DNA of 64,000 nt from the NCBI GenBank assembly GCA_038255465.1, contig JBBSLJ010000001.1, positions 54,274-118,273 on the forward strand, in the 5' to 3' direction. Made by a program: the position numbers and the translations under genes. Origin of the DNA: Candidatus Saccharimonadales bacterium (GTDB taxonomy: Bacteria; Patescibacteriota; Saccharimonadia; Saccharimonadales; JACDFO01). The notes below the pieces were generated by a model that was given only the letters and a program-made list of their open reading frames with translations, searched no databases and was not told where the DNA came from. The stretch's first letter is position 1, and every line of letters begins with the position of its first letter. Positions 29,912 through 62,332 of the stretch are shown in pieces.

Positions 29912-29932
29912 TTAGTGTATTATTGACACTTA
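29912..29932. promoter_or_regulatory. Candidate NrtR operator: 21-bp near-palindrome TTAGTGT-attattg-ACACTtA in the nadD/nadE divergent intergenic region
   Basis: Inverted 7-bp arms with one mismatch. The same TTAGTGT-N7-ACACTAA arrangement recurs at 45749..45769 in another NAD-metabolism promoter. nrtR is encoded directly downstream of nadE. Confidence 0.45.
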
Positions 29933-29995
29933 CTAGTGAGTAGCGTACTATGGTGTTATGTAATTGTCAATTAAACACTAAGTTAAGGAACACAC

Positions 29996-31903: not shown

Positions 31904-31922
31904 ATAGTGTAAGATAAGGAAT

Positions 31923-33127: not shown

Positions 33128-34054
33128 TCATTTTAACAATGTGTCTATTAATGCCATTCTTATGTACAAACCGTTCTCGGTTTGCCTAAAATAAGCAGCT
33201 CTTGGGTCATGATCCACGTTAGGATGAATCTCGTCAGTTCTAGGTAATGGGTGCATAATAATTGCCTGCTCAGGGATCACCTGTAAAGCAGCTTGATCTA
33301 TAACAAACTGGTCTTCAATATTCGGGTTAATCCCCAAAGCCTCCAATCGTTCCCTCTGAATCCGAGTCCAATACACCACGTCAGCTACATGTATAGCTTC
33401 GAACATATCTTCAGTCACAGTGTACGAAACACCTTTATCCTCTAGAAAGAGTCTGACTTCATCACCTATTTGTAGTTCCGGTACAGATACAAAACTTATG
33501 TGATTATCATCGTAAAGTGCTAGCATCTGGGCAAGCGAACGAGCCGTACGCCCGCCCAATAAATCACCACCAATGACAACATTTAGCCCACTCAGACGTT
33601 CTTTCTCGCGTTTGATAGTATAAAGATCCAACAAAGCCTGTGTAGGGTGTTCGCCGTTGCCATCACCTGCGTTTATGATCGGTACACCGCTAACCGAAGC
33701 GGCGCGATCTGCAGAACCAACTTCTTTGTGTCTAAGCACAACGATATCAGCATAACCGTCCAATACCTGAACCGTGTCTTCGATTGTCTCACCCTTCACG
33801 GCTGATGAGAATTCTCCTGCGTTTTCTGTACTCAAAATACCCAGCCCGAGCCTTTGTGCGGCCGACTCAAAACTCAAGCGCGTTCTGGTTGATGGTTCAT
33901 AAAATAACGTCGCCAGCATTGAACCAACATGGCGTCCAGCTAAGTCTTGTCTTGATTCTCTATCTGATAGCAGCTCGCGCATATCATCAGCTTCTTGGAA
34001 AATTTCCGATAATGACTCAGGCGTAAATTGTTTTGCAGATAAGACATGTCTCAT
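33128..34054 (-). CDS. pyrB: Aspartate carbamoyltransferase catalytic chain
   Basis: 308 aa. STRTR carbamoyl-phosphate motif, HPTQ, and the HPLPR motif that distinguishes ATCase from OTCase. Confidence 0.85.
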   Translation of the reverse strand: MRHVLSAKQFTPESLSEIFQEADDMRELLSDRESRQDLAGRHVGSMLATLFYEPSTRTRLSFESAAQRLGLGILSTENAGEFSSAVKGETIEDTVQVLDGYADIVVLRHKEVGSADRAASVSGVPIINAGDGNGEHPTQALLDLYTIKREKERLSGLNVVIGGDLLGGRTARSLAQMLALYDDNHISFVSVPELQIGDEVRLFLEDKGVSYTVTEDMFEAIHVADVVYWTRIQRERLEALGINPNIEDQFVIDQAALQVIPEQAIIMHPLPRTDEIHPNVDHDPRAAYFRQTENGLYIRMALIDTLLK

Positions 34055-37854: not shown

Positions 37855-37892
37855 GTTTGTTTCTCAACTTTCTCTCATGTTGGGTGGGATTT

Positions 37893-39275: not shown

Positions 39276-39296
39276 CCCCTCTCTTGGGATAGATGC

Positions 39297-40415: not shown

Positions 40416-40441
40416 TGTCTGCTGTCCTTTGTTCGGGCCGC

Positions 40442-41254
40442 TTACAGCGGCAGGGTGGTGAATTCAACAAACGTACGCCCCCAGAGCTCTTCGACCAGTT
40501 CATAGAACTGCGCGTGAGCTCTATCAGCCTTGTGTTCACGACGACTTGCCAGGCGCCAAAGGCACTCGACATATCGACCGAACTCCTCACTGTCGTATGG
40601 ATAATTGCCAGTGATAGGATCTCCACCAATGGCAGCAAACACTGCTTTTGCAGCGCCTGCGATATCATCCTTGCGAATTTCCACCGGTATCCCCGTCTGG
40701 TGCATCTGTGCAGACGACCAGTCAAAGACAACGGCGAAATGCTGTTGCGGTTCAAGCAGGATGTTGGCCGCCGTGAGCGAACCAACAGCGATGCCGTCAC
40801 CGTGAGCGAGACCTAGCAGCTTAAGAAGCCTGCCCATAATCCAGGCGCTAGACCTGAGATCAACACGCAGATGGTCTTTGGCCACTAGGTTACTGAGCGG
40901 CACCATCTGCTTTACATCGTCCACTTCCGTGAAAGCCAGGATGTTAACCCGACGGCCACCTTGGTCTTCAGCGATGAAGCCGTCTACCATGAGGGGAAAC
41001 AAACGATCATAGCTAAGCAACCTACCCGAACCGGTCTTAGCGTATTCCGCTTCGAACAGATCGGCTGTTTGCTTCAGTTCCTTCAGGACATACGTAGCCC
41101 TTTCGAGACTGCCGTTGTGTGCTACGCCTGACACGATCTGCAACAGATACGGCTTGTCGTTGTCCACCTCTTGACAGAGATAAACCCGATACAAGTCTGT
41201 TTCTGCGACTTTCGCGCCAACACGATATTTGCACGTACCACTCTCGACGATCAC
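40442..41254 (-). CDS. Small-molecule kinase-like protein (APH / fructosamine-kinase-like phosphotransferase fold); first gene of the cassette
   Basis: 270 aa. HGDGIAVGSLTAANILLEP is a Brenner-type HGDxxxxN catalytic loop, and FAVVFDWSSA is a D(F/W)x metal-binding motif. Confidence 0.6.
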   Translation of the reverse strand: MIVESGTCKYRVGAKVAETDLYRVYLCQEVDNDKPYLLQIVSGVAHNGSLERATYVLKELKQTADLFEAEYAKTGSGRLLSYDRLFPLMVDGFIAEDQGGRRVNILAFTEVDDVKQMVPLSNLVAKDHLRVDLRSSAWIMGRLLKLLGLAHGDGIAVGSLTAANILLEPQQHFAVVFDWSSAQMHQTGIPVEIRKDDIAGAAKAVFAAIGGDPITGNYPYDSEEFGRYVECLWRLASRREHKADRAHAQFYELVEELWGRTFVEFTTLPL

Positions 41255-41559: not shown

Positions 41560-43809
41560 ATGGTCTCATTTGCTTTAAAATCAAATTTTAATTACCATAA
41601 GCGGATGGATACTAGTGAGCTCTTAGGAGCCGCAGCGTTGGCTGAGCCGGCACAAAAAAAACATGAATTTGAAGAAATCACAGAGTCCCAGCCTGCTTCT
41701 ACTATTGACCGATTGCAACAATTAGAAGTATTAAAAGAAGTTGCAGATGTTATGCGAGAAGATCCTGCTGTTTCTTCTATGTTTGATGTTGTACGTCAAA
41801 CTCCTGATATTTTTACTGAAATCCAACCCGTTTTATCTCGTGATAAAGAATTTGACTCGGCAGCCTTACCTGGCGAGCTACACCGTACTTTTACTCCCTT
41901 ATTTGCCGGGATTAGCATGTCGCGTCGCGGAAGCACCCTACTTGAGCTTGCCATCGACAGACACACCGACTGTGAGGCTGAGCAGCTTTGGGGTTTAATT
42001 ATCAAAGGAGAGGCGTACACTTCCGAGCTTGTTGTTGGATCGGGAGTTCATGCAGCTATTTATAATTCAGAGCGCATGACGGCTGATCCAAAAGTGCCGG
42101 CACTTACAATTGACGGTGGTGCCAGCGCGGGCGGACAATTTGCGGGTCCAGAGGGACCAGTCTGGTTTTTGAACACACGTACCAGGCCTGAGGATCCCGA
42201 CGCACCTAATGTCCCGGGGGGCAAGGGCAGCTTGAATACACTAGAGCGTGGCGTTCTTCAACAGTCTGATATCAGCGGATCATCATATGCCTCTCAAGAT
42301 ACATTAGCCCTACCAACGCAAGTCAATCATCTTTTATATAGTAAAGTGCTCAATAGAACGGAAGTTGTTCGTGTTGAGGAAAACAATAGCGATGAAAGCG
42401 GCCGACCAGGATTATACAAAGTGACCTTGAGGTGCGGAGAGCTAGAAGAAGCAACAGTTACTACTGACAGACTAGTTTTTGCGAGTGGTCTTGGTGACCC
42501 AGTTACTGGTTTTGAAAACAGTGACCAAGATACGCAGGATATTATTGAGGAAGAAAAAGCAAAATTTAAACGCGGCGAAGATGCCCAGATCATGACATTC
42601 GAACAATTTGCCGAACGTGTCGGTGACGAAAGCGACCCATTCCCGCTAAGACCCTTTGGGTGGGTGGCAGTAATCGGCCCGGGCGACGGCGGAGCTGTTG
42701 CCGCCGAATACCTATTGGGTAGTGGGCCATCGACACGCATGTCTTCTACCCAGCTTGATCAGGTTCAAGAAGTATTTTGGATCGGCCAAAAAGCCGAAAC
42801 TCGCGAAGAATATATGCAATCAAGCCGGCAGCGTTATCGTAATCTCGGCCTTGAATTCCCAGTTGATACCAAAAGCGGCTATGCTCACCGGCTCACACCT
42901 ATACCAACTCGAGCCTATAAAATTGAGCGAACCGAAGATGGCCGCATCAAGATACTCCATGGGAGGCGTGAAACTGACGGGACTATTACCCACGTTGATG
43001 ATGTCGTGGTTGATCATGTAGTTCTTGCAACTGGTTTCAAAAAAAAGACAGAGAAAATTTGCAGTTCTGTTCTTAAGCCCGACCATGAGGGCAAGGTTGA
43101 CGAATTTGTAACGGTAGATGACGGCTGGGCAATTGCTAGAAGATATTCAGGAACTCAAATATACATTGTTGGGCCGGCAGCCGAATTACCTGTTAGCCGC
43201 CAAGATAGAGATACTTCTCCAGCCATGAAAAGGGGGAAGGTCATATCGAAAACGGTGGCCGTATGGGCTAGCGCAGAGGAAACGGCAGCGGCAGCTAGAT
43301 TGCTTAGCTCACAGAAGCCAGACGGAGAGCGCCCGGCTAGTCTAACTACTAAGCAAACTGCTAAGGTTGAGCCCGTTGAACTCCCGCCAATAGACCTATC
43401 GAATAATCAACAAGGGTCACAAATGGTGGCTGAGGTTGCAAAAGAAAAAATTCATAGTCTTTTGCCACACGATGCCAATTCAGAAGACATTACCCGATTA
43501 GCAGTTGGAACTGCATTACATAGGTACGTTTTCCCTGAGTCATTAGATAGTATACGTTTAACTATCCAAAGGATAAGCGAATCTGAAAACGGCTGGCGTT
43601 TTGATGTTAAGACAAATGTCGGCTTTCCGCAGTCTCCAGAATATATACGCCTTATGGACGACCTTATAGGCGAGCCTCTGTTGCAATCCGTTCTAGTAAG
43701 GCTAACTGAGCGGTCCGTCCACTCTTCTCAGACCGCAGTTTTAGACATCCCCTTATCCATGAGAAAAGTCTCTATAGGTGAAGTTGAGATTCGCGTCAAA
43801 CGCCGCTAG
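41560..43809 (+). CDS. Flavin-dependent (class B, N-hydroxylating/FMO-like) monooxygenase-like protein with N- and C-terminal extensions
   Basis: 749 aa. Two dinucleotide-binding motifs (LVVGSGVHAAIYN; VAVIGPGDGGAVAAEYLL) and a late VLATGF (ATG motif). About 130 aa at the N-terminus and about 190 aa at the C-terminus are unassigned. Confidence 0.55.
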   Translation: MVSFALKSNFNYHKRMDTSELLGAAALAEPAQKKHEFEEITESQPASTIDRLQQLEVLKEVADVMREDPAVSSMFDVVRQTPDIFTEIQPVLSRDKEFDSAALPGELHRTFTPLFAGISMSRRGSTLLELAIDRHTDCEAEQLWGLIIKGEAYTSELVVGSGVHAAIYNSERMTADPKVPALTIDGGASAGGQFAGPEGPVWFLNTRTRPEDPDAPNVPGGKGSLNTLERGVLQQSDISGSSYASQDTLALPTQVNHLLYSKVLNRTEVVRVEENNSDESGRPGLYKVTLRCGELEEATVTTDRLVFASGLGDPVTGFENSDQDTQDIIEEEKAKFKRGEDAQIMTFEQFAERVGDESDPFPLRPFGWVAVIGPGDGGAVAAEYLLGSGPSTRMSSTQLDQVQEVFWIGQKAETREEYMQSSRQRYRNLGLEFPVDTKSGYAHRLTPIPTRAYKIERTEDGRIKILHGRRETDGTITHVDDVVVDHVVLATGFKKKTEKICSSVLKPDHEGKVDEFVTVDDGWAIARRYSGTQIYIVGPAAELPVSRQDRDTSPAMKRGKVISKTVAVWASAEETAAAARLLSSQKPDGERPASLTTKQTAKVEPVELPPIDLSNNQQGSQMVAEVAKEKIHSLLPHDANSEDITRLAVGTALHRYVFPESLDSIRLTIQRISESENGWRFDVKTNVGFPQSPEYIRLMDDLIGEPLLQSVLVRLTERSVHSSQTAVLDIPLSMRKVSIGEVEIRVKRR

Positions 43810-44864
43810 GCGGTCGGTTTTAGTAGAGAAAACTGGCGGGAGATGTTACGCAAATCGTTTATGTCTCGCAGTTGCTCAATATCGCTCGGTTCTTTAAGGT
43901 CAGTAAGTGGGTATAGGGCATTCATGCCCGCAACGATTGACGCGATACTGTCCGTGTCACCGCCAAGCTCTACGGCTTGCCAAACGTTTTCCGGGAAACT
44001 GGCTTTCAGTACAAAAGCGCCGTAGGCCCGTCCGAGTGTACCGATTGAATCAAACCCGCCCTTCGGATTATGTCGAATCACCTCCCGAGCATCAAGTACG
44101 CCGAAATTAGACTTGAGTGCCATCCTGCCAAGACGCCTGCTGAGTATTGGTTCTTTCAGGGTTTGATCCATGCCGACATAGGCGTATTCAGCCATTTTGG
44201 CTATCTCAACCGCAGCATCAAGTAGCATTTGCCTAGAGTTAGCATCACCCTCGAGTAACCACCCTAGTACATCGTGGTGTACTCGGGCTGTCATGGCAGA
44301 AAAAGCATTGTCATGTGTCATACGAGCAAACTGCTCAACTACTTTGTCGCTCTCTGCAGAAGGCAAATTGCTAACTGCATGAAAGTACGCCAGTGGTGCT
44401 AGTTTCATAAGAACACCATTACCTAAACCGCCTTCTTCCCCGGACTCGCTCCAATGCCTGCCGCTAGCCAACCGCTCCATACTGCGAATTGTGCTGCGGC
44501 CAAAGCCAAATTTCTGTGGACCAAACGCCTCTGCATACCGTCCATAGGCAGTAATATGTTCGACAGCGACCGCATCCAATACATCCCCGCCATGTTTTTG
44601 GGTTTGAATAATTGCTTTGGTAACTGCCAGTGACAAAATCGTGTCATCGCTCCATCCACCCGTAGGTTGCCTGTCTATATATGGGTTCTTGGTAGTTGGT
44701 TGCAGGCTGTGAGGATCTTCGCCATTCGCGACCCGTTCACGCATGTGCTCAGCAATTGCCCCGGCTTTCATTGTTTCATATGGCAACCCAGCACTATCGC
44801 CGTAAGCTATCCACGGCAACAACCGCTCACCACATTCTTGTAGTGCGGCTTCCTCTTTGATCAT
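43806..44864 (-). CDS. ADP-ribosylglycohydrolase family protein
   Basis: 352 aa. The N-terminal YGDSAGLPYE matches the ARH/DraG GDALGxPxE motif. Confidence 0.8.
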   Translation of the reverse strand: MIKEEAALQECGERLLPWIAYGDSAGLPYETMKAGAIAEHMRERVANGEDPHSLQPTTKNPYIDRQPTGGWSDDTILSLAVTKAIIQTQKHGGDVLDAVAVEHITAYGRYAEAFGPQKFGFGRSTIRSMERLASGRHWSESGEEGGLGNGVLMKLAPLAYFHAVSNLPSAESDKVVEQFARMTHDNAFSAMTARVHHDVLGWLLEGDANSRQMLLDAAVEIAKMAEYAYVGMDQTLKEPILSRRLGRMALKSNFGVLDAREVIRHNPKGGFDSIGTLGRAYGAFVLKASFPENVWQAVELGGDTDSIASIVAGMNALYPLTDLKEPSDIEQLRDINDLRNISRQFSLLKPTA

Positions 44865-45679
44865 AATTGTCTCTCTTGTTCCAATAGTGGCGGAATACTA
44901 TCCGCAAAAGTCAGCAACGCTTCGTCGCTGTAGCGCTTACGTTCAATATGCACCCATTCTCCATTATTCCAGGATTTTGTTTCATCCCACGGGCTGATTG
45001 ATCGTCGCCATTCAATTCTAGGCCCCATTTTTCCTGTCTCCGGATTGACACGTGAATAATGCATGATCTGGCAGTTCCATATTTTATAATCATCGTCATT
45101 TTCCTGAGCCAGCCATTCGAATGTATCAAGACCCTCAAGCACGTACTTGGCCGCATTTATAAAGTCACCGTGGGTAACTGCAATAACGCTTTGGCCATCG
45201 CATTCACGGTGCAAGGTATTTTGAATACGCTCATAACGTAACCGCACGCCGCTAGCCAGTGACTCGCCGCCTGGCGGACACCAGTACCAGTAATTTTGAC
45301 CCTTGAGTTTATGGCTATGTTTAAATTGCTGCAAGCGTTCTTCATCGTTCAAAAGCCCGTACTCACCCCAGTCACGCTCACGCCACAAATCCTCTTTTTT
45401 CCAGCGACCTCCAAGCCCGAGTAAACCTGCAGTCTTTATGGTGCGGATTAAAGGAGATGTAAAATAGTGGTCAAAGCCTTCGGGAAACTCCCGTCGCAAC
45501 CATTCACCAGCCGACTGGGCCTGCTCTACTCCCTGTGGTGCTAACACCATTTCGCTGTCGTGACGATCGTGGAAACCATCCGGAATTTCAAAACCAGGCG
45601 CCTTTTTTACGCGCGCTTGAATCTCATTTGCTTCAGACCGACCATGGCGCACCATCACTAGATCTCTTGGCATCCCCAT
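44861..45679 (-). CDS. Histidine phosphatase superfamily protein (phosphoglycerate-mutase-like)
   Basis: LVMVRHGRSEAN is the RHG catalytic motif. I propose the start at the ATG at 45679, preceded by AAGGAG at the right spacing. The ORF track extends to a TTG at 45742, which I consider less likely. Confidence 0.7.
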   Translation of the reverse strand: MGMPRDLVMVRHGRSEANEIQARVKKAPGFEIPDGFHDRHDSEMVLAPQGVEQAQSAGEWLRREFPEGFDHYFTSPLIRTIKTAGLLGLGGRWKKEDLWRERDWGEYGLLNDEERLQQFKHSHKLKGQNYWYWCPPGGESLASGVRLRYERIQNTLHRECDGQSVIAVTHGDFINAAKYVLEGLDTFEWLAQENDDDYKIWNCQIMHYSRVNPETGKMGPRIEWRRSISPWDETKSWNNGEWVHIERKRYSDEALLTFADSIPPLLEQERQL

Positions 45680-45748
45680 ATATATCTCCTTTGTATATAT
45701 TGAAACATTTACTGCTAATAAAACCATGTGCAGTATTAGCAAGCTATA

Positions 45749-45769
45749 TTAGTGTTGACAATACACTAA
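45749..45769. promoter_or_regulatory. Candidate NrtR operator: perfect 21-bp palindrome TTAGTGT-tgacaat-ACACTAA
   Basis: It lies in the divergent region between the histidine phosphatase (-) and pncA (+), about 67 bp upstream of pncA. The arms match the nadD/nadE site at 29912..29932. Confidence 0.5.
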
Positions 45770-45835
45770 GTATCATCTACTATCCATTATACACAGTAAG
45801 TGTGTATACAACAATAAGTAGTAGAGGAGTAGATT

Positions 45836-46555
45836 ATGAAAAACGTAGAGACATTCGACGAAGTCATAGCAATTAACGTAGATGTACAGAACGACTTTTG
45901 TCCTGGCGGTGCTCTGGCGGTGGCAGAAGGCGATATGGTAGTAGAACCATTAAACAAGGTTAATGACTGGGTACGTGACCAGGACGGTAAAGTCATCTTC
46001 ACGGGCGACTGGCACCCGCGTGAAACTGCCCACTTTGCAAACAATGGCGGCCCCTGGCCTGCCCATTGTGTCCGTTATACGGCTGGCGCAGCTTTTCACG
46101 ACGACTTAAAAGTAACTGACAACGACACCGTGGCGCTAAAAGGCACTGGTACTAAAGACGATGGTTATTCTGGCTGGTTTGCCGCCTTTGGCGCTGAAAG
46201 TCCTATATATCGGACATATACCGAGAAGGATGACGGCGTTAGCAGTGTCCAGGCCGCAATATTAGAAGCCGTCTGGTTGTATAAAGAAAATCAAAGGAAA
46301 GTTGCAGTTGTAATAGGCGGCTTAGCCACCGATTATTGCGTTAAAGCCACCGTGCTAGACGCCCTAAAAGGTGCCAAGAGTGCAGAGCGCTATGCCGCAA
46401 AAATCGGTATTTTTGTCCTTGAGGACGCTATCCGTGCAGTTGATGTAAATCCTGGAGACGGCGACCGTGCAGTCGATGAAATGAAAGCCGCCGGAGCAGT
46501 CTTTACCACAGCCGAAGAGTTATTAAGCGGCAAATTATTTGAAGTTACGGCGTAA
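45836..46555 (+). CDS. pncA: Nicotinamidase (isochorismatase family)
   Basis: 239 aa. Starts with VDVQNDFCPGGALAV (Asp-Lys-Cys triad family) and has a Shine-Dalgarno sequence upstream. Confidence 0.8.
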   Translation: MKNVETFDEVIAINVDVQNDFCPGGALAVAEGDMVVEPLNKVNDWVRDQDGKVIFTGDWHPRETAHFANNGGPWPAHCVRYTAGAAFHDDLKVTDNDTVALKGTGTKDDGYSGWFAAFGAESPIYRTYTEKDDGVSSVQAAILEAVWLYKENQRKVAVVIGGLATDYCVKATVLDALKGAKSAERYAAKIGIFVLEDAIRAVDVNPGDGDRAVDEMKAAGAVFTTAEELLSGKLFEVTA

Positions 46556-47831
46556 GGATCAAACCATGGAACAATCACCACTTCCCTACGGCCCCGAGCT
46601 AGAAAGAACATACATTACCGCCGGACTCGACTACTACAAGCCGACCATGAGCCAGCTTGCGTACGAGAATGAACCAAATGCCGAAGTAACATTCACCTTC
46701 AAAAATCGCGGCGATCAACGGCTGGCCGATTACATTGATCCGATAGCTTTGCAAGAGCGTTTTGACAGCATTCGCGAACAAGGCTTTAATGCCGAAGAAC
46801 TGGATTACTTAGCTGGCATCCTAAACAGTCGGGGCGATCGTACATTTAGCGACGAATATCTTGAACACTTGCGCAGCGGCCAGTTACCGGCTGTTGACGT
46901 TACCCTGGGTAACGACGATATCGCTATTGAAACAACTGGTGGCTGGAGCCTGGTTAGCTTTTGGGAAACAGTCATAATGAGCGAAGTAAACGAGGCGTAC
47001 TTTGAAGGCTACGTACGAGCGCAAGGGCTCGACATCTTTGAAGTTTACAATGAGGGTGACCGCCGGCTTAGCGAAAAAATCAAAACACTAAAAGCCAATC
47101 CAGACATTAAAATCGTGGACTTTGGTACTAGGCGGCATTTTAGCCAACGCTGGCAGAGTCATGTTGTGAATCGCTTGCTAGCTGAATGCCCAGATAATGT
47201 AATCGGCACAAGCAATGTTGCCTTGGCACAGGCAAACAATATCAAACCGGTTGGCACATTTGCCCATGAAATGCCCATGACGTATGCAGGTCTTGCCGAT
47301 GCACGAGGCCAAGATATAAAAGAATCACACAACCGCTTTATTGGTGACTGGTTTGCGCGCTACGGCGACGACCTGTCTACGGCGCTAACCGACACCTTTG
47401 GTAGTGATTTCTTCTTTAGCGATTTTACGCTTGAGCAGGCCACAAAATGGCGTGCTCTGCGTCATGATTCAGGTGATCCGGTTGAATTCGGCGAAAAAGC
47501 TTTGGCTTTTTATGAAGCCAACGGAATTGATCCAAAAACAAAAACCATCGTTTTTAGTGACGGCTTGGATATTAATGAAATCGTAAGACTGCATGACAAA
47601 TTTAGCGATCGAATCAATGTTACGTTTGGCTGGGGCACTACGCTTACAAACGATCTTGGGCCTAAATCCCTTAATATAGTCATGAAAGCCACTCACGTTG
47701 AGGATACGACTACTGGCCAGGAAGCAGATGAAGTAAAATTAAGCGACAACGCCGGCAAACACACTGGTCCAGAAATCAAAGTAAACGAATACGAATTAAT
47801 CTTTGGTGCAAAGGATTTGGCAGTTTGCTAA
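46539..47831 (+). CDS. pncB: Nicotinate phosphoribosyltransferase
   Basis: 430 aa. N-terminal TAGLDYYKPTMSQLAY and NAPRTase-family length. It overlaps the pncA stop. Confidence 0.85.
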   Translation: MKLRRKDQTMEQSPLPYGPELERTYITAGLDYYKPTMSQLAYENEPNAEVTFTFKNRGDQRLADYIDPIALQERFDSIREQGFNAEELDYLAGILNSRGDRTFSDEYLEHLRSGQLPAVDVTLGNDDIAIETTGGWSLVSFWETVIMSEVNEAYFEGYVRAQGLDIFEVYNEGDRRLSEKIKTLKANPDIKIVDFGTRRHFSQRWQSHVVNRLLAECPDNVIGTSNVALAQANNIKPVGTFAHEMPMTYAGLADARGQDIKESHNRFIGDWFARYGDDLSTALTDTFGSDFFFSDFTLEQATKWRALRHDSGDPVEFGEKALAFYEANGIDPKTKTIVFSDGLDINEIVRLHDKFSDRINVTFGWGTTLTNDLGPKSLNIVMKATHVEDTTTGQEADEVKLSDNAGKHTGPEIKVNEYELIFGAKDLAVC

Positions 47832-47873: not shown

Positions 47874-48617
47874 ATGGGAACTAGTCAAACCGAGCTGTTC
47901 AAACAGGATGCGCTACAGTGCATGCGCGGTTCATTAGCGCAACAAAACTACCCCGGCTATCCCAACCAATCAGAAAGACTACATGGTGATGTCACAAATC
48001 TTGATATTCCAGATCAGTGGCCATTGCACCCATGGATTACTGATATGCTCGATGACCCTGAGATCGGTGCTGTAACTGGCCGGCGATTTTATAGGAATTT
48101 CGGAGCAAATTATACTGCCGATCCAATTATAGTCCGCCGTGATATGAGCAAACCGCATGTGCTGCTTATTGAGCGCGGTGACACAGGTTGTCTGGCACTG
48201 CCGGGTGGGTTTATCGAGCCGGATGAAGATCCCGCCACGGCCGCCAGACGTGAAGCCAAAGAAGAGACTGGTATTGATTTGCTACGGCTCATACATACGA
48301 TCAAGCCCGTATATAGCGGTCCAGTTGCTGATATTAGACTAACAGCCAACGCCTGGCCCGAAACATTTGCGTTCTGCTTTGAACTACAACTTGACACAAA
48401 TGAAGAGCAAAAAACACTAACAGAAATGATGTCGCGAAACCGTTTTGACAAAGTCATCAGGTCAGCGGGCCGTGCTGCCTCTATTAATTATTTGCAGAAC
48501 AGAGGATGGCAAGGCACTGACGACGCCAAAACGGCTGGATGGTTTCCAGCCGATAAAGTTAACAATAGGCTGTTCGGTTCCCATAAAGCCCTGGTTGAAC
48601 TGGCTATGAAAGGCTAG
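47874..48617 (+). CDS. NUDIX hydrolase (probable ADP-ribose/NAD-related pyrophosphatase) with an N-terminal extra domain
   Basis: 247 aa. Complete Nudix box LPGGFIEPDEDPATAARREAKEETGI. Confidence 0.8.
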   Translation: MGTSQTELFKQDALQCMRGSLAQQNYPGYPNQSERLHGDVTNLDIPDQWPLHPWITDMLDDPEIGAVTGRRFYRNFGANYTADPIIVRRDMSKPHVLLIERGDTGCLALPGGFIEPDEDPATAARREAKEETGIDLLRLIHTIKPVYSGPVADIRLTANAWPETFAFCFELQLDTNEEQKTLTEMMSRNRFDKVIRSAGRAASINYLQNRGWQGTDDAKTAGWFPADKVNNRLFGSHKALVELAMKG

Positions 48618-48622: not shown

Positions 48623-50077
48623 TTACTTCTCTGTAGTTGGAGTGGTTTCCCTGCGTGGGAATAATGTGCCTTCAATCGGGCGCACAATTCCCTCGTCAAA
48701 TACCTTTCGAATTTTTTCAGATGTATCCGGGATAAACGGCTTCAGCAGCTCAGCAATTTCTAGCAATGAACTTACCTGATTAGCCAGGACTTCGCGCAGA
48801 TGCTCTGTATCGTCCTTCTTTTTGAGTTCCCATGGTTTCTCAACCTCTATGTACTGGTTAAGCCCGCGAACTTGCTCCCAAACTTCTTCAAGGGCACGAT
48901 CGAACCGGCACGCTTCAAGCGCCGCAACGTACTGGCCAGTATCGTGGCTAGACGGAGGGATAATGCCAATCAAGCCGTTTTGATATTGCGAAATCATAGC
49001 GGCTGTACGCTGTACGGCGTTGCCAAGTTCATTGGCCAGTTCACTGTTATATACTGCCTGCAATCGTTCCCAGCTAAACTCACCATCTTCATAAGACGGA
49101 ACATGACGCAGCAGGTAATATCGGAACACGTCTGTTCCGTATTCTTTAATGATTTCTTGCGGGTCAATAACGTTTCCGAGAGACTTGCTCATTTTGGTGC
49201 CGCCTTCGGCGTTAATAAAGCCGTGTACATACAGGGTTTTAGGCAACGGCAGGCCAAGACCAAGTAAAATACCCGGCCAGATTGCGGCGTGAAACCGCAA
49301 AATATCTTTGCCAACGACCTGCACATTGGCCGGCCAGAACTTCTTAAAATCATCGTGTTCCGGATAGCCCAGCACCGTAATATAGTTCATCAGCGCCTCA
49401 AACCAAACGTACATTACTTGAGTTTTATCACCAGGCACTGGGACGCCCCACGATATTTTGTCTATCGGCCTTGAGATGCTGATGTCCTCCAGGCCTTCCT
49501 TAATCACGTGCATGATCTCATGCTTTCTGGTAGCCGGGATAATCGTAAAACTACCGTCTGTGATGGCCTTCTCAATAACGGATGCATACTTTGAAAGTTT
49601 GAAAAAGTAGTTTTCTTCTTCGATTTTTTCATACGTTTTATTATGATGCGGGCAAATGTTGTTATTTGCTTTAGCGGCCGCCTCTGTTACGTATTCTTCG
49701 CAACCCGTGCAGTACAAACCGGTATATTTTGACTTATAAATATCCTTTTCAAGCGCCTTCCAAATCAATTGCGCTCGCTGCTCGTGACCGGCATCGGTTG
49801 TGCGGATAAAGCGGTCATTGCTGATATCAAGGTCTTTTAGAAGCTTACGGAAATTATCGCTCATTTTATCAACAAGCACTTTTGGGGTAACGTTTAGTTC
49901 GGCTGCTTTTTCGGCAATCTTGCCTCCGTGTTCATCGGTGCCTGTACAAAAAATAACTGGTTTGCCTTGCTGGCGAGCGTAGCGCGCAATGACATCTGCC
50001 AGCACAAATTCAAAGGCATGGCCAATATGCGGCTCGCCGTTTACGTACGGAATAGAAGTTGTAATAAAGTAATTCAC
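48623..50077 (-). CDS. metG: Methionine--tRNA ligase, short form
   Basis: 484 aa. HIGH motif (PHIGHAFE) and KMSKS (GTKMSKSLGN). No C-terminal tRNA-binding appendix. Confidence 0.9.
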   Translation of the reverse strand: MNYFITTSIPYVNGEPHIGHAFEFVLADVIARYARQQGKPVIFCTGTDEHGGKIAEKAAELNVTPKVLVDKMSDNFRKLLKDLDISNDRFIRTTDAGHEQRAQLIWKALEKDIYKSKYTGLYCTGCEEYVTEAAAKANNNICPHHNKTYEKIEEENYFFKLSKYASVIEKAITDGSFTIIPATRKHEIMHVIKEGLEDISISRPIDKISWGVPVPGDKTQVMYVWFEALMNYITVLGYPEHDDFKKFWPANVQVVGKDILRFHAAIWPGILLGLGLPLPKTLYVHGFINAEGGTKMSKSLGNVIDPQEIIKEYGTDVFRYYLLRHVPSYEDGEFSWERLQAVYNSELANELGNAVQRTAAMISQYQNGLIGIIPPSSHDTGQYVAALEACRFDRALEEVWEQVRGLNQYIEVEKPWELKKKDDTEHLREVLANQVSSLLEIAELLKPFIPDTSEKIRKVFDEGIVRPIEGTLFPRRETTPTTEK

Positions 50078-50201: not shown

Positions 50202-50549
50202 TTAAGACCATTCACGCGACTGGTTTTTCTTTTCTTTCATTTCAAAAGCTTTTGCGAGGTCAATATTTAGGTGATTACACAGGTCGAGCAAGTACCAAAA
50301 CACGTCCGCTGCCTCTTCTTCTAAATCATGCACACGTGAGTTTTTATCCGTTTTTATGCCGCTCGCTTTTCTGGTGGCCTTCGCAAACTCACCGACTTCT
50401 TCTAGAAACAACATAAAAATTTCAGACACGGATTCGTCAGCAAAACCCCGCTCTGTCACCATTTTTTCCACGTATTTCTGATATTCGGATACTGTCATAG
50501 TTCTATTGTAACAACTTAAGATGCTTAAGGTTTCATTCCCTAAGTTCAT
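50202..50549 (-). CDS. MazG-like nucleotide pyrophosphohydrolase domain protein
   Basis: Contains EEVGEFAKA ... EEAADVFWYLLDLCNHLNIDL, the all-alpha NTP-PPase EExxE/EExxD signature. The true start is probably an internal Met (MTVSEYQ). Confidence 0.6.
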   Translation of the reverse strand: MNLGNETLSILSCYNRTMTVSEYQKYVEKMVTERGFADESVSEIFMLFLEEVGEFAKATRKASGIKTDKNSRVHDLEEEAADVFWYLLDLCNHLNIDLAKAFEMKEKKNQSREWS

Positions 50550-50624
50550 AGCCTACAATTTCAGTTGGACCAGAGAGTTCAAGCTGCACCTTTACAACCA
50601 TCGACCACATGAGGAGCGAGTAGC

Positions 50625-51365
50625 ATGCAACTGACGGAAGAAGCAGTAGCCAACGCCATTATCTGGAGCGCCGACGTCGATACCACCGAAACCTTGCTGG
50701 CTCAGGTAGAGAAGATGCCTAGGCTTTCGATCGTCAAAATCGACCGCCTGTTCGTGGCAAAGAACGGCTACGACATCTTCGACGCCCTTCGTGAGCGAGA
50801 CAAGCACGTCTTCTACGACGCCAAGATCGTCGAAATCCCAAGCAAAAGCGAGGCGCTGGCCATAGCCGAGTGCCGGCATCAGCCCTGGATGCTCAACTGC
50901 ATGGCCGGAATTGTGTCTGGTGGTGATTTTAGCCACGACGACCCCGATAAAATCGAAGCGCTGATGCGTTTTGCTGATGCCTGCCTCAGCGCAGACGTCC
51001 GTCCCTGTGCCGTGACGGTACTCACAAGCAAAAAGCCAGAGCTGGTCACCGAGGAATTCGGCCGCAGTGCCATCGATCAGGTGCTGTACTACGTCGAGCT
51101 CCTGGTGACTGCCGGTTTCACAGATGTCGTCTGCTCGCCAGCAGAGATCGAAGCCATCCGCTCGCGGTTCGAAGTCGACCTCGACATCAACACGCCCGGC
51201 TTGCGCCGCAATTCATCTGACACCGGCGACCAAGCCCGCGTCGCTACGCTTGGCTCGGCTCTTCGTTCTGGTGCCACTCGTGGCGTCATTGGTCGTGACC
51301 TGACCAAAGGCAACCCCGCTCAGAACTTTGACGACATCGTCGCCGAAGCCGTCGCCGAAGTCTGA
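50625..51365 (+). CDS. pyrF: Orotidine 5-prime-phosphate decarboxylase
   Basis: 246 aa. VKIDRLFVAKNG, VFYDAKIVEIPSK (matching the DxKxxDIP motif) and the C-terminal GRDLTKGNP. Confidence 0.7.
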   Translation: MQLTEEAVANAIIWSADVDTTETLLAQVEKMPRLSIVKIDRLFVAKNGYDIFDALRERDKHVFYDAKIVEIPSKSEALAIAECRHQPWMLNCMAGIVSGGDFSHDDPDKIEALMRFADACLSADVRPCAVTVLTSKKPELVTEEFGRSAIDQVLYYVELLVTAGFTDVVCSPAEIEAIRSRFEVDLDINTPGLRRNSSDTGDQARVATLGSALRSGATRGVIGRDLTKGNPAQNFDDIVAEAVAEV

Positions 51366-51394
51366 TCCCCAGACCGACAATCCGAAAGGACGTT

Positions 51395-52063
51395 ATGACA
51401 ACGCTCGAAGGAAAGAAGGAGTTGGTTGCCGATTTGCTTTATGCGCTCGGCGCCATCCAGATCGACACTGAAGTCGGATTCCGGCTCAAGTTGCACGAAA
51501 GGCTGCCCAGCGCACCGCTTTCGCCGATCTATCTGAACCTGAGGACACCGGATCATTCTAAGAACCCGGGACCTCTGACGCCAGAGATCATGCAACTCAT
51601 CGCAGAGTTGATGGATGAGATGTCGCTCGGTCTGGGCAAAGAGTGCTTTACCGGCATCCCGGAAGCTGGCGAGCCTTTTGCGGACTATTTCGAGAAGATC
51701 GTCGGCGCAAGCCGCCTCCGCCTGCAGAAGGTAGAAAAAAACGGCAAGCGCTGGATCGACGATCATTTCACAGGCGATTTCGAGCCGGGCGACCGCTGCA
51801 TCATCATCGACGACCTCATCACGCAGGCCGATAGCAAGCTGGAGGCCATCCGTGCTTTGACACACTCGACGCTCCAAATATCCGGAGTGCTAGTCGTTGT
51901 CGACCGTATGCAGGGAGGTCGTCAGCAGCTTATGGCAGCGGGTCACCGGCTATTCGCCATTTTCACGCTGCACGAACTGCTCAGCCATTACGCCCGGAAG
52001 GGCTACATCGATCAGTCGCAGGCCGAGACAGTGCTGAAGTACATCGCGGTCAACCAGGCCTGA
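51395..52063 (+). CDS. Orotate phosphoribosyltransferase-like protein with a non-canonical PRPP loop
   Basis: 222 aa. The OPRT-like N-terminus (LGAIQID...GFRLKLH...SPIYLNLR) is present. The PRPP motif reads CIIIDDLITQADS where VEDVITTGGS is expected. The C-terminal VVVDRMQGG is present. Confidence 0.6.
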   Translation: MTTLEGKKELVADLLYALGAIQIDTEVGFRLKLHERLPSAPLSPIYLNLRTPDHSKNPGPLTPEIMQLIAELMDEMSLGLGKECFTGIPEAGEPFADYFEKIVGASRLRLQKVEKNGKRWIDDHFTGDFEPGDRCIIIDDLITQADSKLEAIRALTHSTLQISGVLVVVDRMQGGRQQLMAAGHRLFAIFTLHELLSHYARKGYIDQSQAETVLKYIAVNQA

Positions 52064-52135
52064 ACTCTCACCCCAGGGCCGCCGGTCCCTAGCGTCACGC
52101 ATCCAGCGTGAATCTAAAACCGGCACCTACCAAGT

Positions 52136-52264
52136 TTATTCATTATGTTTAGTGGCTAAATGCCACAACTGGCAGTGCCGACACTTATAAGCTCTTAATT
52201 TGGCACCATGCTGCCAGTCAGCAACCACGCCAGCAGCTGTCGCTTGGGTCTTTGTATCGAAAAC
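52136..52264 (-). CDS. Possible very small Cys/His-containing protein (hypothetical)
   Basis: Only the C-terminal part of ORF 52136..52387 is plausible (MVFDTKTQ...YKCRHCQLWHLATKHNE). The ORF-track 5-prime extension runs through a terminator hairpin and a 34-bp palindrome. Confidence 0.2.
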   Translation of the reverse strand, partial: VFDTKTQATAAGVVADWQHGAKLRAYKCRHCQLWHLATKHNE

Positions 52265-52350
52265 CATTTTCTCTGAACACGGTAAGGCAGGCTCTTCATC
52301 CTCTTTAAACATTCCATAAATTATACACGCCCAAAACCCAATGATACGTG

Positions 52351-52384
52351 TTATATATTTCACGCTATAGCGTGAAATATATAA
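52351..52384. repeat. Perfect 34-bp palindrome TTATATATTTCACGCTATAGCGTGAAATATATAA
   Basis: The reverse complement is identical to the sequence. It is immediately distal to the trehalase terminator hairpin and could be a second hairpin or a dimeric regulator site. Confidence 0.6.
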
Positions 52385-52387
52385 CAA

Positions 52388-52428: not shown

Positions 52429-53691
52429 TTAATCAACAAATTCTTTGCAGAGGTATTCAAATACTGCGTTAGTCCAGCCAAAGCCGGTTTGAGATGGGTA
52501 GACTCCCTTGGCGGGCGGCTTACCCGGACTAACGACATTATATTTTTCAAGGAATAGACCGTGTTCGCTGAACCAGTTCAGGTTATTGCGTAGCCACTTC
52601 ATAGCAATACGCTTTGCATCTTCATGGTAGCCGTATTTTAGAAGACCTTTAATGATCAAGAAGTGCAGCGGCGCCCAGCCATTTGGATACGCCCACTGAG
52701 CTGGCATTGTTCCTGGCACAACCGAGCCAGGAATGACCTGTTGCACCATTTGGCCGTCAGTAGTTGCAAGTCCGCCTCGTTGCTCAAAACGCCTAATTGA
52801 CTTGACCATTTGAGCAGCCTGCTTTTGATCGACCATGCCTGCCCACAGTGGATAGTAACCAGCAAGCGAGCTAACTGTTCCACGCCGCTCTTTGGCAAAG
52901 TTATAATCAAAATAATAACCGCGCAAATTGCTCCACATAAGATTGCGCATGGTCTCTGCACGATGACGAGCAGCCGTCTCCCATTCGCCCGCTTTTCGGA
53001 TATCTTGTATATGACGGTAGTACCGCGCAAAGTCCATTTCGTATTTATACAAAAGGGCGTTTAAATCTGCCGGCAAAAAATTAAGCGCCTTACGGCCAAA
53101 GCGGGTTGTCATGTCCCAGCCGCTTTCGGCTTCAGCAAGGTCGTGCAGATAGTTTGTATCGTAATACCGGCTCAGCCCCTGATAAACTAGGCGGGCATTC
53201 GGCTTGCTTTCACCCATCCATACCGTTTTATATTCTTGCTCTGCGGTTGCAATTGCTTGTTTAAGCCATTTTTCCGGCATATGGTAGGTATCAAAAATGT
53301 CCCAAATAAAACTAGTTAGAAATGGCGGCTGACTGCGGCCCATAAGATACATGCGCGAGGCGTTCGGAATGACCTTGTAGCGCCTAAACATATGCATAAG
53401 GTTTTCGACCATGCCGACCACCAAATCTTTATGCTCCTCATCAAGCATGCCTTGGATCATGAAATAACTGTCCCAGTAATACATTTCGTTAAAATCAAAT
53501 TCATGGCCTTTTTCATAGGCCGGGACCAGGTATTTATTTGGCAGTCCGAGCAAGCTTTCATCGTCTTTGGGGTGGTAGCGCTCAAGATTATGCCAGTATG
53601 CCTCGATATAGGCTCTAGCGGCAGCTACATCCTCGGGCTTTAAGTCACTCCCTTTTTTAAAAGGGTTCAGGTTTTTGGCTTTACTAAGCAT
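52429..53691 (-). CDS. Alpha,alpha-trehalase (GH37)
   Basis: 420 aa with both GH37 signatures: EMYYWDSYFMIQGM and QWAYPNGWAP. Confidence 0.8.
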   Translation of the reverse strand: MLSKAKNLNPFKKGSDLKPEDVAAARAYIEAYWHNLERYHPKDDESLLGLPNKYLVPAYEKGHEFDFNEMYYWDSYFMIQGMLDEEHKDLVVGMVENLMHMFRRYKVIPNASRMYLMGRSQPPFLTSFIWDIFDTYHMPEKWLKQAIATAEQEYKTVWMGESKPNARLVYQGLSRYYDTNYLHDLAEAESGWDMTTRFGRKALNFLPADLNALLYKYEMDFARYYRHIQDIRKAGEWETAARHRAETMRNLMWSNLRGYYFDYNFAKERRGTVSSLAGYYPLWAGMVDQKQAAQMVKSIRRFEQRGGLATTDGQMVQQVIPGSVVPGTMPAQWAYPNGWAPLHFLIIKGLLKYGYHEDAKRIAMKWLRNNLNWFSEHGLFLEKYNVVSPGKPPAKGVYPSQTGFGWTNAVFEYLCKEFVD

Positions 53692-60249: not shown

Positions 60250-61833
60250 GTGATGGATGAAGCCATTGCTTTATGCCGTGTATCTAGCAAAGAGCAGCTA
60301 GATAGCAACAGCCTTAATCTCCAAGGCGAGAGCGTAGATGCAATGGCCGATGAACTTAAAGTAAAAATTGTCAAGAAGTGGGCGATACAACAGAGTAGCA
60401 AAAAGGGTCAGAATATTAAGCGTAAAGACTTGCAAGAAGCACTGGTACTTTGTCGTAAGAATAAGAAAATAAAGTATTTTTTGGTTGATAAAGTCCACCG
60501 TTACATGCGTGAAATGGAGATGATATTTTACTTTAAGGTACTCTTCAGAGAGCAAGGTGTTAAACTCATCTTCTGTGACCCGGGCCAAAGAGACCTCAAC
60601 GAAGATACGCCAGAAGCAAGTCTCAAACTAGCACAAAAAGCATATGATGCAGAAATAGCCAATGTCGAAAGAAGAGATACTGCACTCAGTCGTATGTCTG
60701 CAAGAGTTGCAGCGGGCTACTATCCCTTTAATACGCATGCGGGCTACAAAAAGACGGAAGCAGAAGATGGCCTACATATACCTGATGAACCAAGATTTGG
60801 TCTACTTCAAGAGGGGTGTCGCTTAATTATCTACAAACAACACACTGTCTCACAGGCTGTTAAATGGATGAATGAAAATGGTTACCTAACAAAAGGCGGC
60901 AAGAAGTTAGATATTAACCACTTTGAGGAGTTCATTGTGGACGAATACTATTGTGGCTTCGTAAAAATTGACGGACCAGACTGGCCAGATAAAGTTCCCG
61001 GCCTACATGTGCCTCTGCTCTCCAAGAGAGAACATGCTCTACTAATCGCCATAATCAAAAAGCGTAACCCTAGAATGAGAAGCATACATAACCCAGAATT
61101 TCCGATGGCTAATATCATACGACATCAAGAATGCGAAGGACTTGGAGGCTATGAGAAATTTGCTGGACATAATCACAACCCTGGTAAAACACGAAAAGGT
61201 ACCCAGAAAGCTCTCAAGCCCGTATACGATTGCAGAGATTGCAGAAAACGTATAGGCAGAGATATGACTCATGAAAACTTCTCAGACTACCTTGAGAGCC
61301 TAGTCTTCATACCAGACGATAAGAGCTTTAAGCATGCCCTGCTGAAAGTCTGGAAGAATCAGCGAGGCTCAAACGCTCAGAGATTACTTGTTTTAAACGC
61401 CAACAAAGATGTAATTGATAAGAAAATCAGGGACACAACCGTAACATATGCCACTGAGAGTGATGAAATCGTAAAGAGCTCACTACGTAAGCTACTGGGC
61501 GAATACAACGACGAGCTACAACAAGCCGAAACCGACATACACGAAGCAAGTAACATAGACTTAGAATCAGATGACTTTGTTAAGTTTGCTTTCCAGCAAG
61601 TAGATACCATGCGAGACAAATGGTGGAAATTGAACTGGAATGATAAAGCGAGGGGTGAACAAATTCTGTTTAATGGCAAAATTTATGTAGATAATGCTGC
61701 AAAAGTTCACACCCCAAATTTGAGTAACATTTACACCTTAGGGACAAACAAAAAAGCACTATCCGGAATGGATAATGCTCATTTGGTGGAGCTGGTGGGT
61801 ACCGCCCCCACGTCCGTCAGTTTAACTGGTTAG
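60250..61833 (+). CDS. Large serine recombinase (resolvase catalytic domain plus recombinase domain plus zinc ribbon)
   Basis: 527 aa. ALCRVSSKEQ carries the catalytic Ser motif. It has a long C-terminal region with a Cys cluster (CRDCRKR). The probable ATG is at 60253. Confidence 0.85.
   Translation: MMDEAIALCRVSSKEQLDSNSLNLQGESVDAMADELKVKIVKKWAIQQSSKKGQNIKRKDLQEALVLCRKNKKIKYFLVDKVHRYMREMEMIFYFKVLFREQGVKLIFCDPGQRDLNEDTPEASLKLAQKAYDAEIANVERRDTALSRMSARVAAGYYPFNTHAGYKKTEAEDGLHIPDEPRFGLLQEGCRLIIYKQHTVSQAVKWMNENGYLTKGGKKLDINHFEEFIVDEYYCGFVKIDGPDWPDKVPGLHVPLLSKREHALLIAIIKKRNPRMRSIHNPEFPMANIIRHQECEGLGGYEKFAGHNHNPGKTRKGTQKALKPVYDCRDCRKRIGRDMTHENFSDYLESLVFIPDDKSFKHALLKVWKNQRGSNAQRLLVLNANKDVIDKKIRDTTVTYATESDEIVKSSLRKLLGEYNDELQQAETDIHEASNIDLESDDFVKFAFQQVDTMRDKWWKLNWNDKARGEQILFNGKIYVDNAAKVHTPNLSNIYTLGTNKKALSGMDNAHLVELVGTAPTSVSLTG
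61743..61793 (+). repeat. Right copy of the imperfect direct repeat (inside the recombinase 3-prime end)
   Basis: See 56343..56393. Confidence 0.7.
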
Positions 61834-62332
61834 TCTGTCCTACAGGCATAGGCTGTTCGAATTACGTTTCACTGCATAAGAACAGTCAAGAAGCAGTGAG
61901 CCGTTTAATCCTAATCTTAGACTGACTACGGATCACTTGTCAGTAGCATCCAGAAAATATGGCGTGATTATGTACTATCTGGCGTCGTATATATCACGGC
62001 TGTCAAAATTAATTAAGCAGCGTACGCTACAGGTGCGAATTGGAAATTACCAAAACGTGCAAGTAGCTGATCTTTAAGATTTGCATCTAAAAAGGTTTTG
62101 CCTATAACGCTGGCAAGCGGCCTGCTGATCTAACCGTTAAAGTCCAACGTCGAGCATAAATTTCAGCCCCTCGTTTGTAGTCACATATTAATACGTGACA
62201 TCCTTATATTATACCACTTATGTCAATAGGAGTACAATGGTCTGCCGAAGAGCAAAGTAATATTATTTAATATATTGCGTTATGTATATAATTGTGCTAT
62301 AATACCGTACATAACATAATAACAGGTTAAGG

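Follow-up and report, generated by a model that had tools for sequence, protein, structure and literature searches.

A GC-Rich pyrF-pyrE Pair of a Saccharimonadales Genome, Probably Replaced in Place at a Conserved metG-Linked Locus

The 64,000-nucleotide stretch of Candidatus Saccharimonadales DNA analysed here (the window) contains two adjacent, GC-rich genes on its plus strand, pyrF and pyrE. With a probability of roughly three in four, they represent the pyrF-pyrE operon of Saccharimonadia-like Patescibacteria, which makes uridine 5'-monophosphate (UMP) and has been swapped in place by xenologous copies. PyrE (51395-52063) is predicted to act as orotate phosphoribosyltransferase (OPRT), joining orotate and phosphoribosyl pyrophosphate (PRPP) to give orotidine 5'-monophosphate (OMP), which PyrF (50625-51365), a predicted OMP decarboxylase (OMPDC), would decarboxylate to UMP. 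These functions are assigned from family membership, conserved residues, gene linkage and gene fusion. The GC-rich segment of about 1.5 kb would reflect a separate history within a conserved metG-linked locus, at which xenologues from other, probably GC-richer, Patescibacteria have probably taken the place of pyrF and pyrE alleles and even of different enzyme types, the likely route being recombination through the conserved flanks. The pair is an ordinary pathway in a lineage-specific form, and its motif variants are conserved and uncharacterised.

The Orotate Phosphoribosyltransferase PyrE

An earlier note on this DNA, made from the letters alone, had described the second gene as OPRT-like, with a DR..GG motif and a non-canonical PRPP-binding loop, and both points stand. 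A HMMER alignment places the window segment IIIDDLITQADSKLEAI opposite human LIIEDVVTSGSSVLETV and Leishmania VIIDDLVSTGETKVEAI, and VVVDRMQGG opposite LLDREQGG of the human protein; the register of the loop IIIDDLITQADS against OPRT structures is therefore correct. The protein is marked by a hood with LKLHE..P.APLSPIYLNLRT, the PRPP loop IIIDDLITQADSK and the segment VVVDRMQGG. A PRPP motif of type I phosphoribosyltransferases runs from a hydrophobic strand through two acidic and two hydrophobic residues into a Thr/Ser-x-Gly-x-Ser/Thr loop. In window PyrE, CIIIDDLIT of this motif is kept, and the loop TQADS has Ala for Gly and Asp as its fourth residue; the corresponding E. coli OPRT loop reads DDVITAGTA. 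Among 25 PyrE homologues, D139, L141, T143 and K148 do not vary and A145 hardly does, the whole acidic pair D139-D140 being invariant in the homologues, as are D170, R171, Q173, G174 and G175 of the DRxQGG segment. The Arg of DR(x)(Q/E)GG contacts orotate in solved OPRTs.

Over 84 loci from species-representative genomes, the loop consensus is DD[LV][IV]-T-x-A-[DE]-[ST]-K, and a few members have a Gly. T-Q-A-D-S-K is the normal loop of an OPRT lineage common to Patescibacteria and Chloroflexota, and the nearest counterpart of this lineage is the OPRT domain of eukaryotic UMP synthase (UMPS). Binding of the 5-phosphate is expected to fall to the backbone amides of the loop, together with its Thr and Ser. 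The hood insertion LKLHE..P.AP is family-specific and adjoins the base-binding region.

When a profile of the PyrE family is compared with the PDB, the 17 best matches are all OPRTs, with E-values from 1.5e-35 for the human UMPS OPRT domain (2wns) and 3.4e-30 for Leishmania UMPS down to 9e-6, whereas xanthine phosphoribosyltransferase reaches only 9e-5. The AlphaFold (AF2) model of PyrE has a predicted local distance difference test score (pLDDT) of 95.8, and its 47 top Foldseek matches are again all OPRTs. The OPRT domain of eukaryotic UMPS (human 2WNS, Leishmania donovani 3QW4) is the best match in sequence, profile and fold alike, occupying Foldseek ranks 1-3. It shares with window PyrE the type I phosphoribosyltransferase (PRTase) core, the acidic pair ahead of the loop, DR(E/M)QGG and a C-terminal helical extension, and the order OMPDC-then-OPRT, seen in the operon and in fused Patescibacteria proteins, is that of Leishmania UMPS. 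In contrast to the UMPS domain, window PyrE has Ala for Gly in the loop (T-x-A-[DE]-[ST]-K) and the hood insertion, which is 6-8 residues long; it is a separate polypeptide, and the identity is only ~24-25%. The enzymes of E. coli and Salmonella (1ORO, 1LH0, 1OPR) share the inferred reaction and the fold (Foldseek E ~1e-10, template modelling score 0.69-0.71), but they are only 17-18% identical to window PyrE, which lies far under the pyrE equivalog cut-offs.

The OMP Decarboxylase PyrF

The first gene, recognised in the earlier note as an OMPDC, matches Pfam PF00215 (OMPdecase) with 59.6 bits against a cut-off of 27. All 50 of the 50 matches of its profile in the PDB are OMPDCs (best 7e-30), and pyrF models are its only NCBIfam matches. 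PyrF keeps D17, K38, D65, K67, S135, Q203 and R224 (with G223), among which are the first-strand Asp, the second-strand Lys, the Ser of the TS motif, and the Gln and Arg of the phosphate-binding loops. Type-1 bacterial OMPDCs (E. coli PyrF 1EIX, Coxiella 3TR2, and 3TFX) are its best match; common to both are Asp and Lys in the first two strands, D-x-K, a serine in TS(K) and the motifs GDQxR and IGR for phosphate binding. PyrF differs from them in a subfamily motif, DxKxxE-I-P-S-K in place of DxKxxD-I-P-N-T: the window sequence YDAKIVEIPSK stands against DLKFHDIPNT of E. coli, with E70 for the third Asp of the motif and K74 for Thr. Both E70 and K74 are invariant in 25 homologues, and the E/K pair is present in 121 of 124 relatives. 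PyrF is a member of a coherent OMPDC subfamily with DxKxxE[IV]PxK for DxKxxD, here called E-type.

E-type PyrF is paired with a CPR-type (candidate phyla radiation) PRTase in the window and in the loci L003, L005, L006 and L009. In L086, the gene behind an E-type pyrF (8746-9420) encodes a very divergent Thermus-type pyrE-like PRTase (TIGR01367, 45 bits) with the loop NDRISQGGTT; its GC content at third codon positions (GC3) is 0.66, against 0.34-0.39 in its flanks. The pairing of E-type OMPDC with two OPRT types fits a role as OMPDC.

Operons and Gene Fusions

The PyrE family was found at 145 species-representative loci in Patescibacteria and Chloroflexota. In 61 of 84 loci, an open reading frame (ORF) of 150 aa or more ends just ahead of the family gene, and the recognisable motifs of these upstream genes are those of OMPDCs of three kinds: type 1 (DxKxxDIPNT), long type 2 (DxKRGDIGxT) and E-type (DAKI[IV]E[IV]PSK). 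Upstream pyrFs score above the TIGR01740 cut-off of 92.3 in L014, L019, L020 and L065 (117-146) and above the TIGR02127 cut-off of 110.6 in L002 (199) and L084 (273). Further genes of the pathway follow in some relatives. The order is pyrF-PRTase-pyrD in L065 and in Ktedonobacterales L084, where pyrD encodes a quinone dihydroorotate dehydrogenase (459 bits), pyrF-PRTase-pyrC-pyrB in Chloroflexia L079, and PRTase-pyrC in L041. The PRTase copies in pyr operons carry the loop DDLVTHADSK or DDLVSQADSK.

Several Patescibacteria encode a fused PyrF-PyrE protein of 450-470 aa, in which a type-1 OMPDC is followed by a PyrE-family PRTase. In L055 and L058, the two fusions tested, the N-terminal half scores above the TIGR01740 pyrF cut-off; length and motif mark L046, L047, L062, L068 and L070 as fusions too. 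Identity among the fused pyrFE genes is 68-84%, in genomes with a background GC3 anywhere from 0.22 to 0.58, a point in favour of replacement, and in L055 the fused gene has a GC3 of 0.48, with 17 of 17 neighbours at 0.18-0.29. No flanking genes in common were found with L055 or L058, the two loci examined. Membership in pyr operons and fusion to pyrF are strong evidence that the family is PyrE. The gene order is also that of the bifunctional PyrF-PyrE family (NF004034/PRK05500), L055 and L058 being true fusions; unlike this family, the window has two separate genes, and its match is confined to the C-terminal part of the model, with 42 bits against a cut-off of 656.

Synteny and In-Place Replacement

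The metG-linked locus of the pair is conserved in five Saccharibacteria-like genomes. In L005, L086, L008 and L002, metG adjoins the pyr genes and is 87% (MetG protein 86.7%), 71%, 66% and 65% identical to that of the window, respectively. The trehalase gene is syntenic in L002, L005 and L086, and the MazG-like neighbour is also present in L005 (86.7% identical) and L086. By MetG and MazG, the genomes rank as window/L005 (87%), then L086 (71%), then L002 (65%). In L002, L005 and L086, which come from other samples, this metG-linked site likewise holds a pyrF-pyrE pair, and the GC contrast recurs there. In the GC-rich Saccharibacterium L008, pyrE, whose GC3 is native-like, lies ~1.4 kb from metG, with a gene between them.

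The pair itself departs from its flanks. Between the window and L005, protein identity is 86.7% for MetG, 86.7% for MazG and 95% for the C-terminus of trehalase, versus 48.6% for PyrF and 63.5% for PyrE. At the DNA level, identity to L005 is 77-80% in metG and the MazG-like gene, drops to 55-65% over ~50604-52065 and then recovers. Window PyrF is nearer to that of the more distant L086 (67.5%) than to that of L005, and the nearest relatives of L005 PyrF are proteins other than window PyrF. PyrE cannot be compared with L086, which has the other PRTase type; L002 PyrE is 54.6% identical, and PyrF is not comparable there, as L002 has a bona fide type-2 pyrF. The dip in identity, together with the swapped enzyme types, indicates that alleles, and even enzyme types, have been exchanged in place.

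The horizontal acquisition proposed in the earlier note therefore holds in one part and fails in another. A history unlike that of the flanks is borne out by the L005 identities and the DNA dip, but the pair is no added island: the metG-linked locus is conserved and free of mobility genes and repeats, and the pair is not absent from the syntenic site of the relatives L002, L005 and L086, as would be required of an island. The arrangement resembles xenologous in-situ displacement in its shared locus, its foreign alleles or types, a composition unlike the flanks, and the lack of integrase and att sites; simple displacement would not, however, lead one to expect a GC excess that has one direction and turns up throughout the phylum.

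A second fast-diverging or exchanged gene nearby is the NUDIX gene next to metG (47874-48617, +), which is only 61% identical to its L005 counterpart, against 87% for metG, with a DNA identity of 0.59-0.67 and no GC anomaly.

Composition and Layout of the Locus

The features of the locus are collected in Table 1. As the earlier note had observed, the two-gene unit is GC-richer than its flanks: the GC3 of pyrF and pyrE (0.692 and 0.717) compares with a median of 0.439 over 55 window ORFs, all native genes lying at 0.35-0.50. Windowed GC is 0.53-0.61 across 50550-52199 and 0.40-0.50 in the flanks, and the composition changes sharply at the borders of the pair. The non-coding DNA takes part in this, the spacer and the 3' tail contrasting with the other intergenic DNA of the window (GC 0.40 +/- 0.06). 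The independent Logan assembly SRR19962009 contains the same junctions of a metG fragment, the MazG-like gene, pyrF and pyrE at 100% identity, and the contig is therefore not chimeric.

Table 1. Features of the pyrF-pyrE locus and of pyrB in the window.
Feature	Position	Strand	Remarks
pyrB, aspartate carbamoyltransferase	33128..34054	-	TIGR00670 310.3 bits vs 236.95; GC3 0.382
metG, native-GC synteny anchor	48623..50077	-	Pfam tRNA-synt_1g 4e-105
MazG-like nucleoside triphosphate (NTP) pyrophosphohydrolase	50202..50549	-	Pfam MazG 1.9e-07; GC3 0.448; 5' edge of islet
Divergent intergenic region, MazG-like gene/pyrF	50550..50624	.	75 nt; GC 0.49
Antisense ORF, shadow of pyrF	50592..50936	-	114 aa; shadow frame
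pyrF, OMP decarboxylase (predicted), E-type subfamily	50625..51365	+	246 aa; GC3 0.692
Antisense ORF, shadow of pyrE, no gene	51320..51877	-	185 aa; exact codon register with pyrE
pyrF-pyrE spacer	51366..51394	+	29 nt; GC 0.55 though non-coding
pyrE, orotate phosphoribosyltransferase (predicted), Patescibacteria/Chloroflexota type	51395..52063	+	222 aa; GC3 0.717
GC-rich non-coding tail past pyrE stop	52064..52113	+	GC 0.66; 3' edge of islet
Trehalase, native-GC synteny anchor, other side	52429..53691	-	Pfam Trehalase 8e-86

Shine-Dalgarno-like purine runs precede both start codons, GAGGAG 9-14 nt ahead of the pyrF ATG and AAAGGA ahead of the pyrE ATG, inside the spacer. A simple scan gave no sigma-70-like site in the 75-nt region ahead of pyrF, and its two terminator-like matches are both within pyrF and not above shuffles. 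A cis-regulatory RNA at the pair was considered and rejected, as transfer-messenger RNA (tmRNA) is the sole Rfam match in the window.

An overlapping antisense gene was rejected likewise. The antisense ORFs occupy the shadow frame, and in length they do not exceed what synonymous-codon shuffles give (p = 0.40 and 0.25); pyrE contains 0 TTA, 2 CTA and 0 TCA codons. Nor are such ORFs restricted to the pair, as had been claimed: they reach 338 aa in a GC-rich island at 36655-41254 and 155 aa in the native metG.

Points Against Replacement and Alternative Explanations

Several results weigh against a UMP-making operon replaced in place. Both proteins score under the NCBIfam cut-offs, PyrE with 72.4 against 208 (NF010382) and 43.7 against 106.8 (TIGR00336), and PyrF with 109.5 against 193 (NF001273) and 77.2 against 92.3 (TIGR01740); PyrE has no Pfam PF00156 match at E <= 0.01. 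The loop Gly, present in every solved OPRT aligned, is missing in window PyrE, and PyrF has DxKxxE instead of the DxKxxD signature, in which the catalytic Lys stands between two Asp. Consistent with the earlier note, pyrC, pyrD and carAB are absent from the Pfam-scanned window ORFs of at least 150 aa (51 of 55), and a whole-window tblastn search with Chloroflexota PyrC and PyrD gave no match. At the islet borders there is no integrase, mobility gene, tRNA or tmRNA gene, or bracketing direct repeat, the tmRNA and recombinase genes being 8-10 kb off and unrelated to the islet, and no family member occurs on IMG/VR viral contigs. An integrative element and phage carriage were rejected on these grounds; the same absence of integrase, tRNA, repeats and viral copies fits recombination through conserved flanks. 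The transfer part is further burdened by composition: the pair is GC3-rich in every syntenic relative, pyrE has a higher GC3 than its local surroundings in 54 of 62 loci (p = 1.7e-9), and the regression of pyrE GC3 (0.84 x background + 0.19) never crosses the identity line.

The survey behind these figures covers 62 independent species-level loci, with 699 genes as controls. A z-score of pyrE GC3 above 2 is reached in 40% of the loci versus 4.9% of the control genes, and one below -2 is never seen; an excess greater than 0.2 occurs in 18% of the loci versus 0.7% of the controls. The excess, about +0.09 to +0.115, is similar in low-, mid- and high-GC genomes, and the upstream pyrF shows it in all four kinds. 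All five metG-linked relatives have a pyrE GC3 of 0.63-0.79 whatever their background (0.37-0.70). The 3' tail of pyrE has a GC content 0.091 higher than the 3' tails of other genes (42 of 49 loci positive, p = 8e-8).

These regularities, and the gene-by-gene GC3 ranking that a PurA-like operon at 36655-41254 keeps in three genomes, speak for a vertically inherited cassette whose GC content is maintained by a gene-specific force, such as GC-biased gene conversion at a site prone to recombination or selection on the mRNA or DNA composition of nucleotide-supply operons, the low identity to L005 then being due to fast or recombination-driven divergence. Such an origin is nevertheless unlikely. 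Type-2 and E-type pyrF, and Thermus-type and CPR-type pyrE, occupy one syntenic slot, which vertical descent cannot have brought about, and the PyrF of a more distant genome resembles window PyrF more than that of the sister does. Moreover, the genes for the ribosomal proteins L11 and L1 beside the pair in L004 have a GC3 of 0.67-0.73 against 0.82-0.83 for the pair, and ATP synthase genes in the window are not elevated either (0.47-0.49), which makes expression-linked codon bias unlikely. That non-coding DNA is affected as well argues against pure codon selection, although not against biased gene conversion.

Three simpler accounts of the excess were rejected. Expression-linked codon bias as the sole cause is incompatible with the ribosomal and ATP synthase genes, and codon selection alone does not explain the GC-rich non-coding DNA. 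Pyrimidine-sparing transcripts are contradicted by pyrF, in which C is the third-position base that rises most (0.48 vs 0.225), so that pyrimidines overall do not become fewer. Regression to the mean under random horizontal transfer does not agree with a fit that stays on one side of the identity line. An excess in one direction is not explained by random transfer and points to an additional directional force. Two candidate causes of the pattern are source-sink flow from GC-richer lineages and GC-biased gene conversion at a frequently recombining locus.

It is conceivable, though on balance doubtful, that pyrF-pyrE is one of a group of nucleotide-supply operons held GC-richer than the genome throughout Patescibacteria by a gene-specific directional process, the PurA-like operon at 36655-41254 being another member. 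The excess would then be independent of both genome GC and the enzyme type in the slot, and its cause would be strong GC-biased gene conversion at allele-exchanging loci or selection for A+U-poor DNA or mRNA. If this were true, such islets would point to a hitherto unnoticed level at which the genomes of ultra-small symbionts are organised, and would not be one-off transfers.

A neofunctionalised pair, as raised in the earlier note, would act on, for example, another base or a non-phosphorylated ribosyl donor and make no UMP; it is very improbable. The loss of the loop Gly and gain of Asp, the changes from DxKxxD to DxKxxE and from Thr to Lys, the scores of both proteins under the curated cut-offs and the family-specific hood insertion by the base-binding region could all be read in its favour. 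The altered loop TxA[DE][ST]K is, however, the consensus of an OPRT family that occurs in canonical pyr operons and fused to pyrF; the same loop and hood are found in pyrF-pyrE-pyrD and pyrF-pyrE-pyrC-pyrB operons and in pyrF fusions. In the loop STGETK of Leishmania UMPS, which is a functional enzyme of solved structure, an acidic residue and Lys stand where ADSK has them. Conservation extends to the DRxQGG associated with orotate and to the residues of the OMPDC phosphate gripper, and only OPRT and OMPDC structures were matched.

An artefact, through a chimeric contig, a binning error or a real antisense gene driving GC3, might be suspected from the abrupt composition change at the gene borders and the long antisense ORFs, but its probability is close to nil given the identical Logan junctions, the recurrence of arrangement and GC contrast in L002, L005 and L086 from other samples, and antisense ORFs that keep to the shadow frame at shuffle lengths.

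Pyrimidine Pathway and Significance

The only other gene of pyrimidine de novo synthesis in the window is pyrB at 33 kb, which the earlier note had rightly taken for a native-GC gene and which encodes a true aspartate carbamoyltransferase (Table 1). Some relatives have pyrD or pyrC beside the pyrF-pyrE pair. In Saccharibacteria and other Patescibacteria, de novo nucleotide synthesis is incomplete according to published reconstructions (PMC7786006, PMC9530719, PMC11659515), and none of the papers searched joins Patescibacteria, Saccharibacteria or CPR with orotate, orotidine or OPRT. Orotate salvage is plausible in the window genome, where the pair would most plausibly turn host-derived or environmental orotate into UMP.

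The OPRT lineage and the Glu-motif OMPDC subfamily score under curated thresholds and are often left as 'hypothetical'. As a result, the final two steps of UMP synthesis are called too rarely when pathways are reconstructed for these symbionts. For catalytic proficiency, OMPDC is a textbook example. The conserved Asp-to-Glu and Thr-to-Lys variant of this enzyme and the Gly-less OPRT loop are cheap and informative targets for enzymology. The locus itself appears as a site of repeated in-place swaps of alleles and even of non-orthologous enzyme types, and the phylum-wide GC excess, if general, bears on composition in reduced genomes.

Other Features of the Window

The flanking genes encode methionyl-tRNA synthetase (MetRS), the MazG-like pyrophosphohydrolase, trehalase, NUDIX and PIG-L proteins, an F-type ATPase, alanyl-tRNA synthetase (AlaRS), Obg, FtsA and an NAD salvage set, and the nearest relatives of every window protein searched are found in Saccharimonadia and other Patescibacteria. 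The set for NAD salvage and regulation (29310-32600 and 43806-47831) comprises NadD-like, glutamine-dependent NadE and PncA-like isochorismatase proteins, PncB (NAPRTase), an NrtR-like NUDIX regulator and an ADP-ribosylglycohydrolase. An NTPase_I-T (DUF84) gene adjoins pyrB.

A second, larger GC-rich island lies at 36655-41254 on the minus strand (GC3 0.57-0.80) and is a conserved four-gene operon. It encodes a divergent PurA-like protein of 460 aa (Pfam 110 bits, far under the purA cut-offs; 62-81% identity among Patescibacteria), a protein of 399 aa with a SAM/HhH-like domain, a protein of 270 aa that lacks any Pfam match and has only weak, non-significant PDB matches to the kinase StkP (E 0.4), and a 372-aa protein of the vWA fold. 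The last has the sequence DTTGSMGG, resembling a metal ion-dependent adhesion site, and an AF2 pLDDT of 95.2; among PDB folds, integrin beta-I and pilus-adhesin vWA domains match it best, and its family has only 180 representatives among 1.84 billion. L087 and L088 have the four-gene operon too, and gene by gene its GC3 ranking is alike in the three genomes. L087 in addition contains a gene (14749-15387) for a 212-aa protein with no Pfam match and a GC3 of 0.86 against ~0.48, and L002 one (11170-11463) for an RRM_1 RNA-binding protein with 0.67 against ~0.50. Both are isolated GC3 outliers, and these related genomes may carry GC-rich islets in general.

The tmRNA gene (61784-62170, -; Rfam 60.9 bits) abuts a gene for a 527-aa serine recombinase (60250-61833, +), next to the lowest-GC stretch of the window (0.37 at 59-60 kb). 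The serine recombinase may belong to a mobile element integrated at ssrA. A perfect 38-bp palindrome at 52349-52386, with 19-nt arms and no spacer (TGTTATATATTTCACGCTA/TAGCGTGAAATATATAACA), spans the 5' end of an 83-aa ORF (52136-52387) just downstream of the trehalase gene and might serve as operator, terminator or recombination site.

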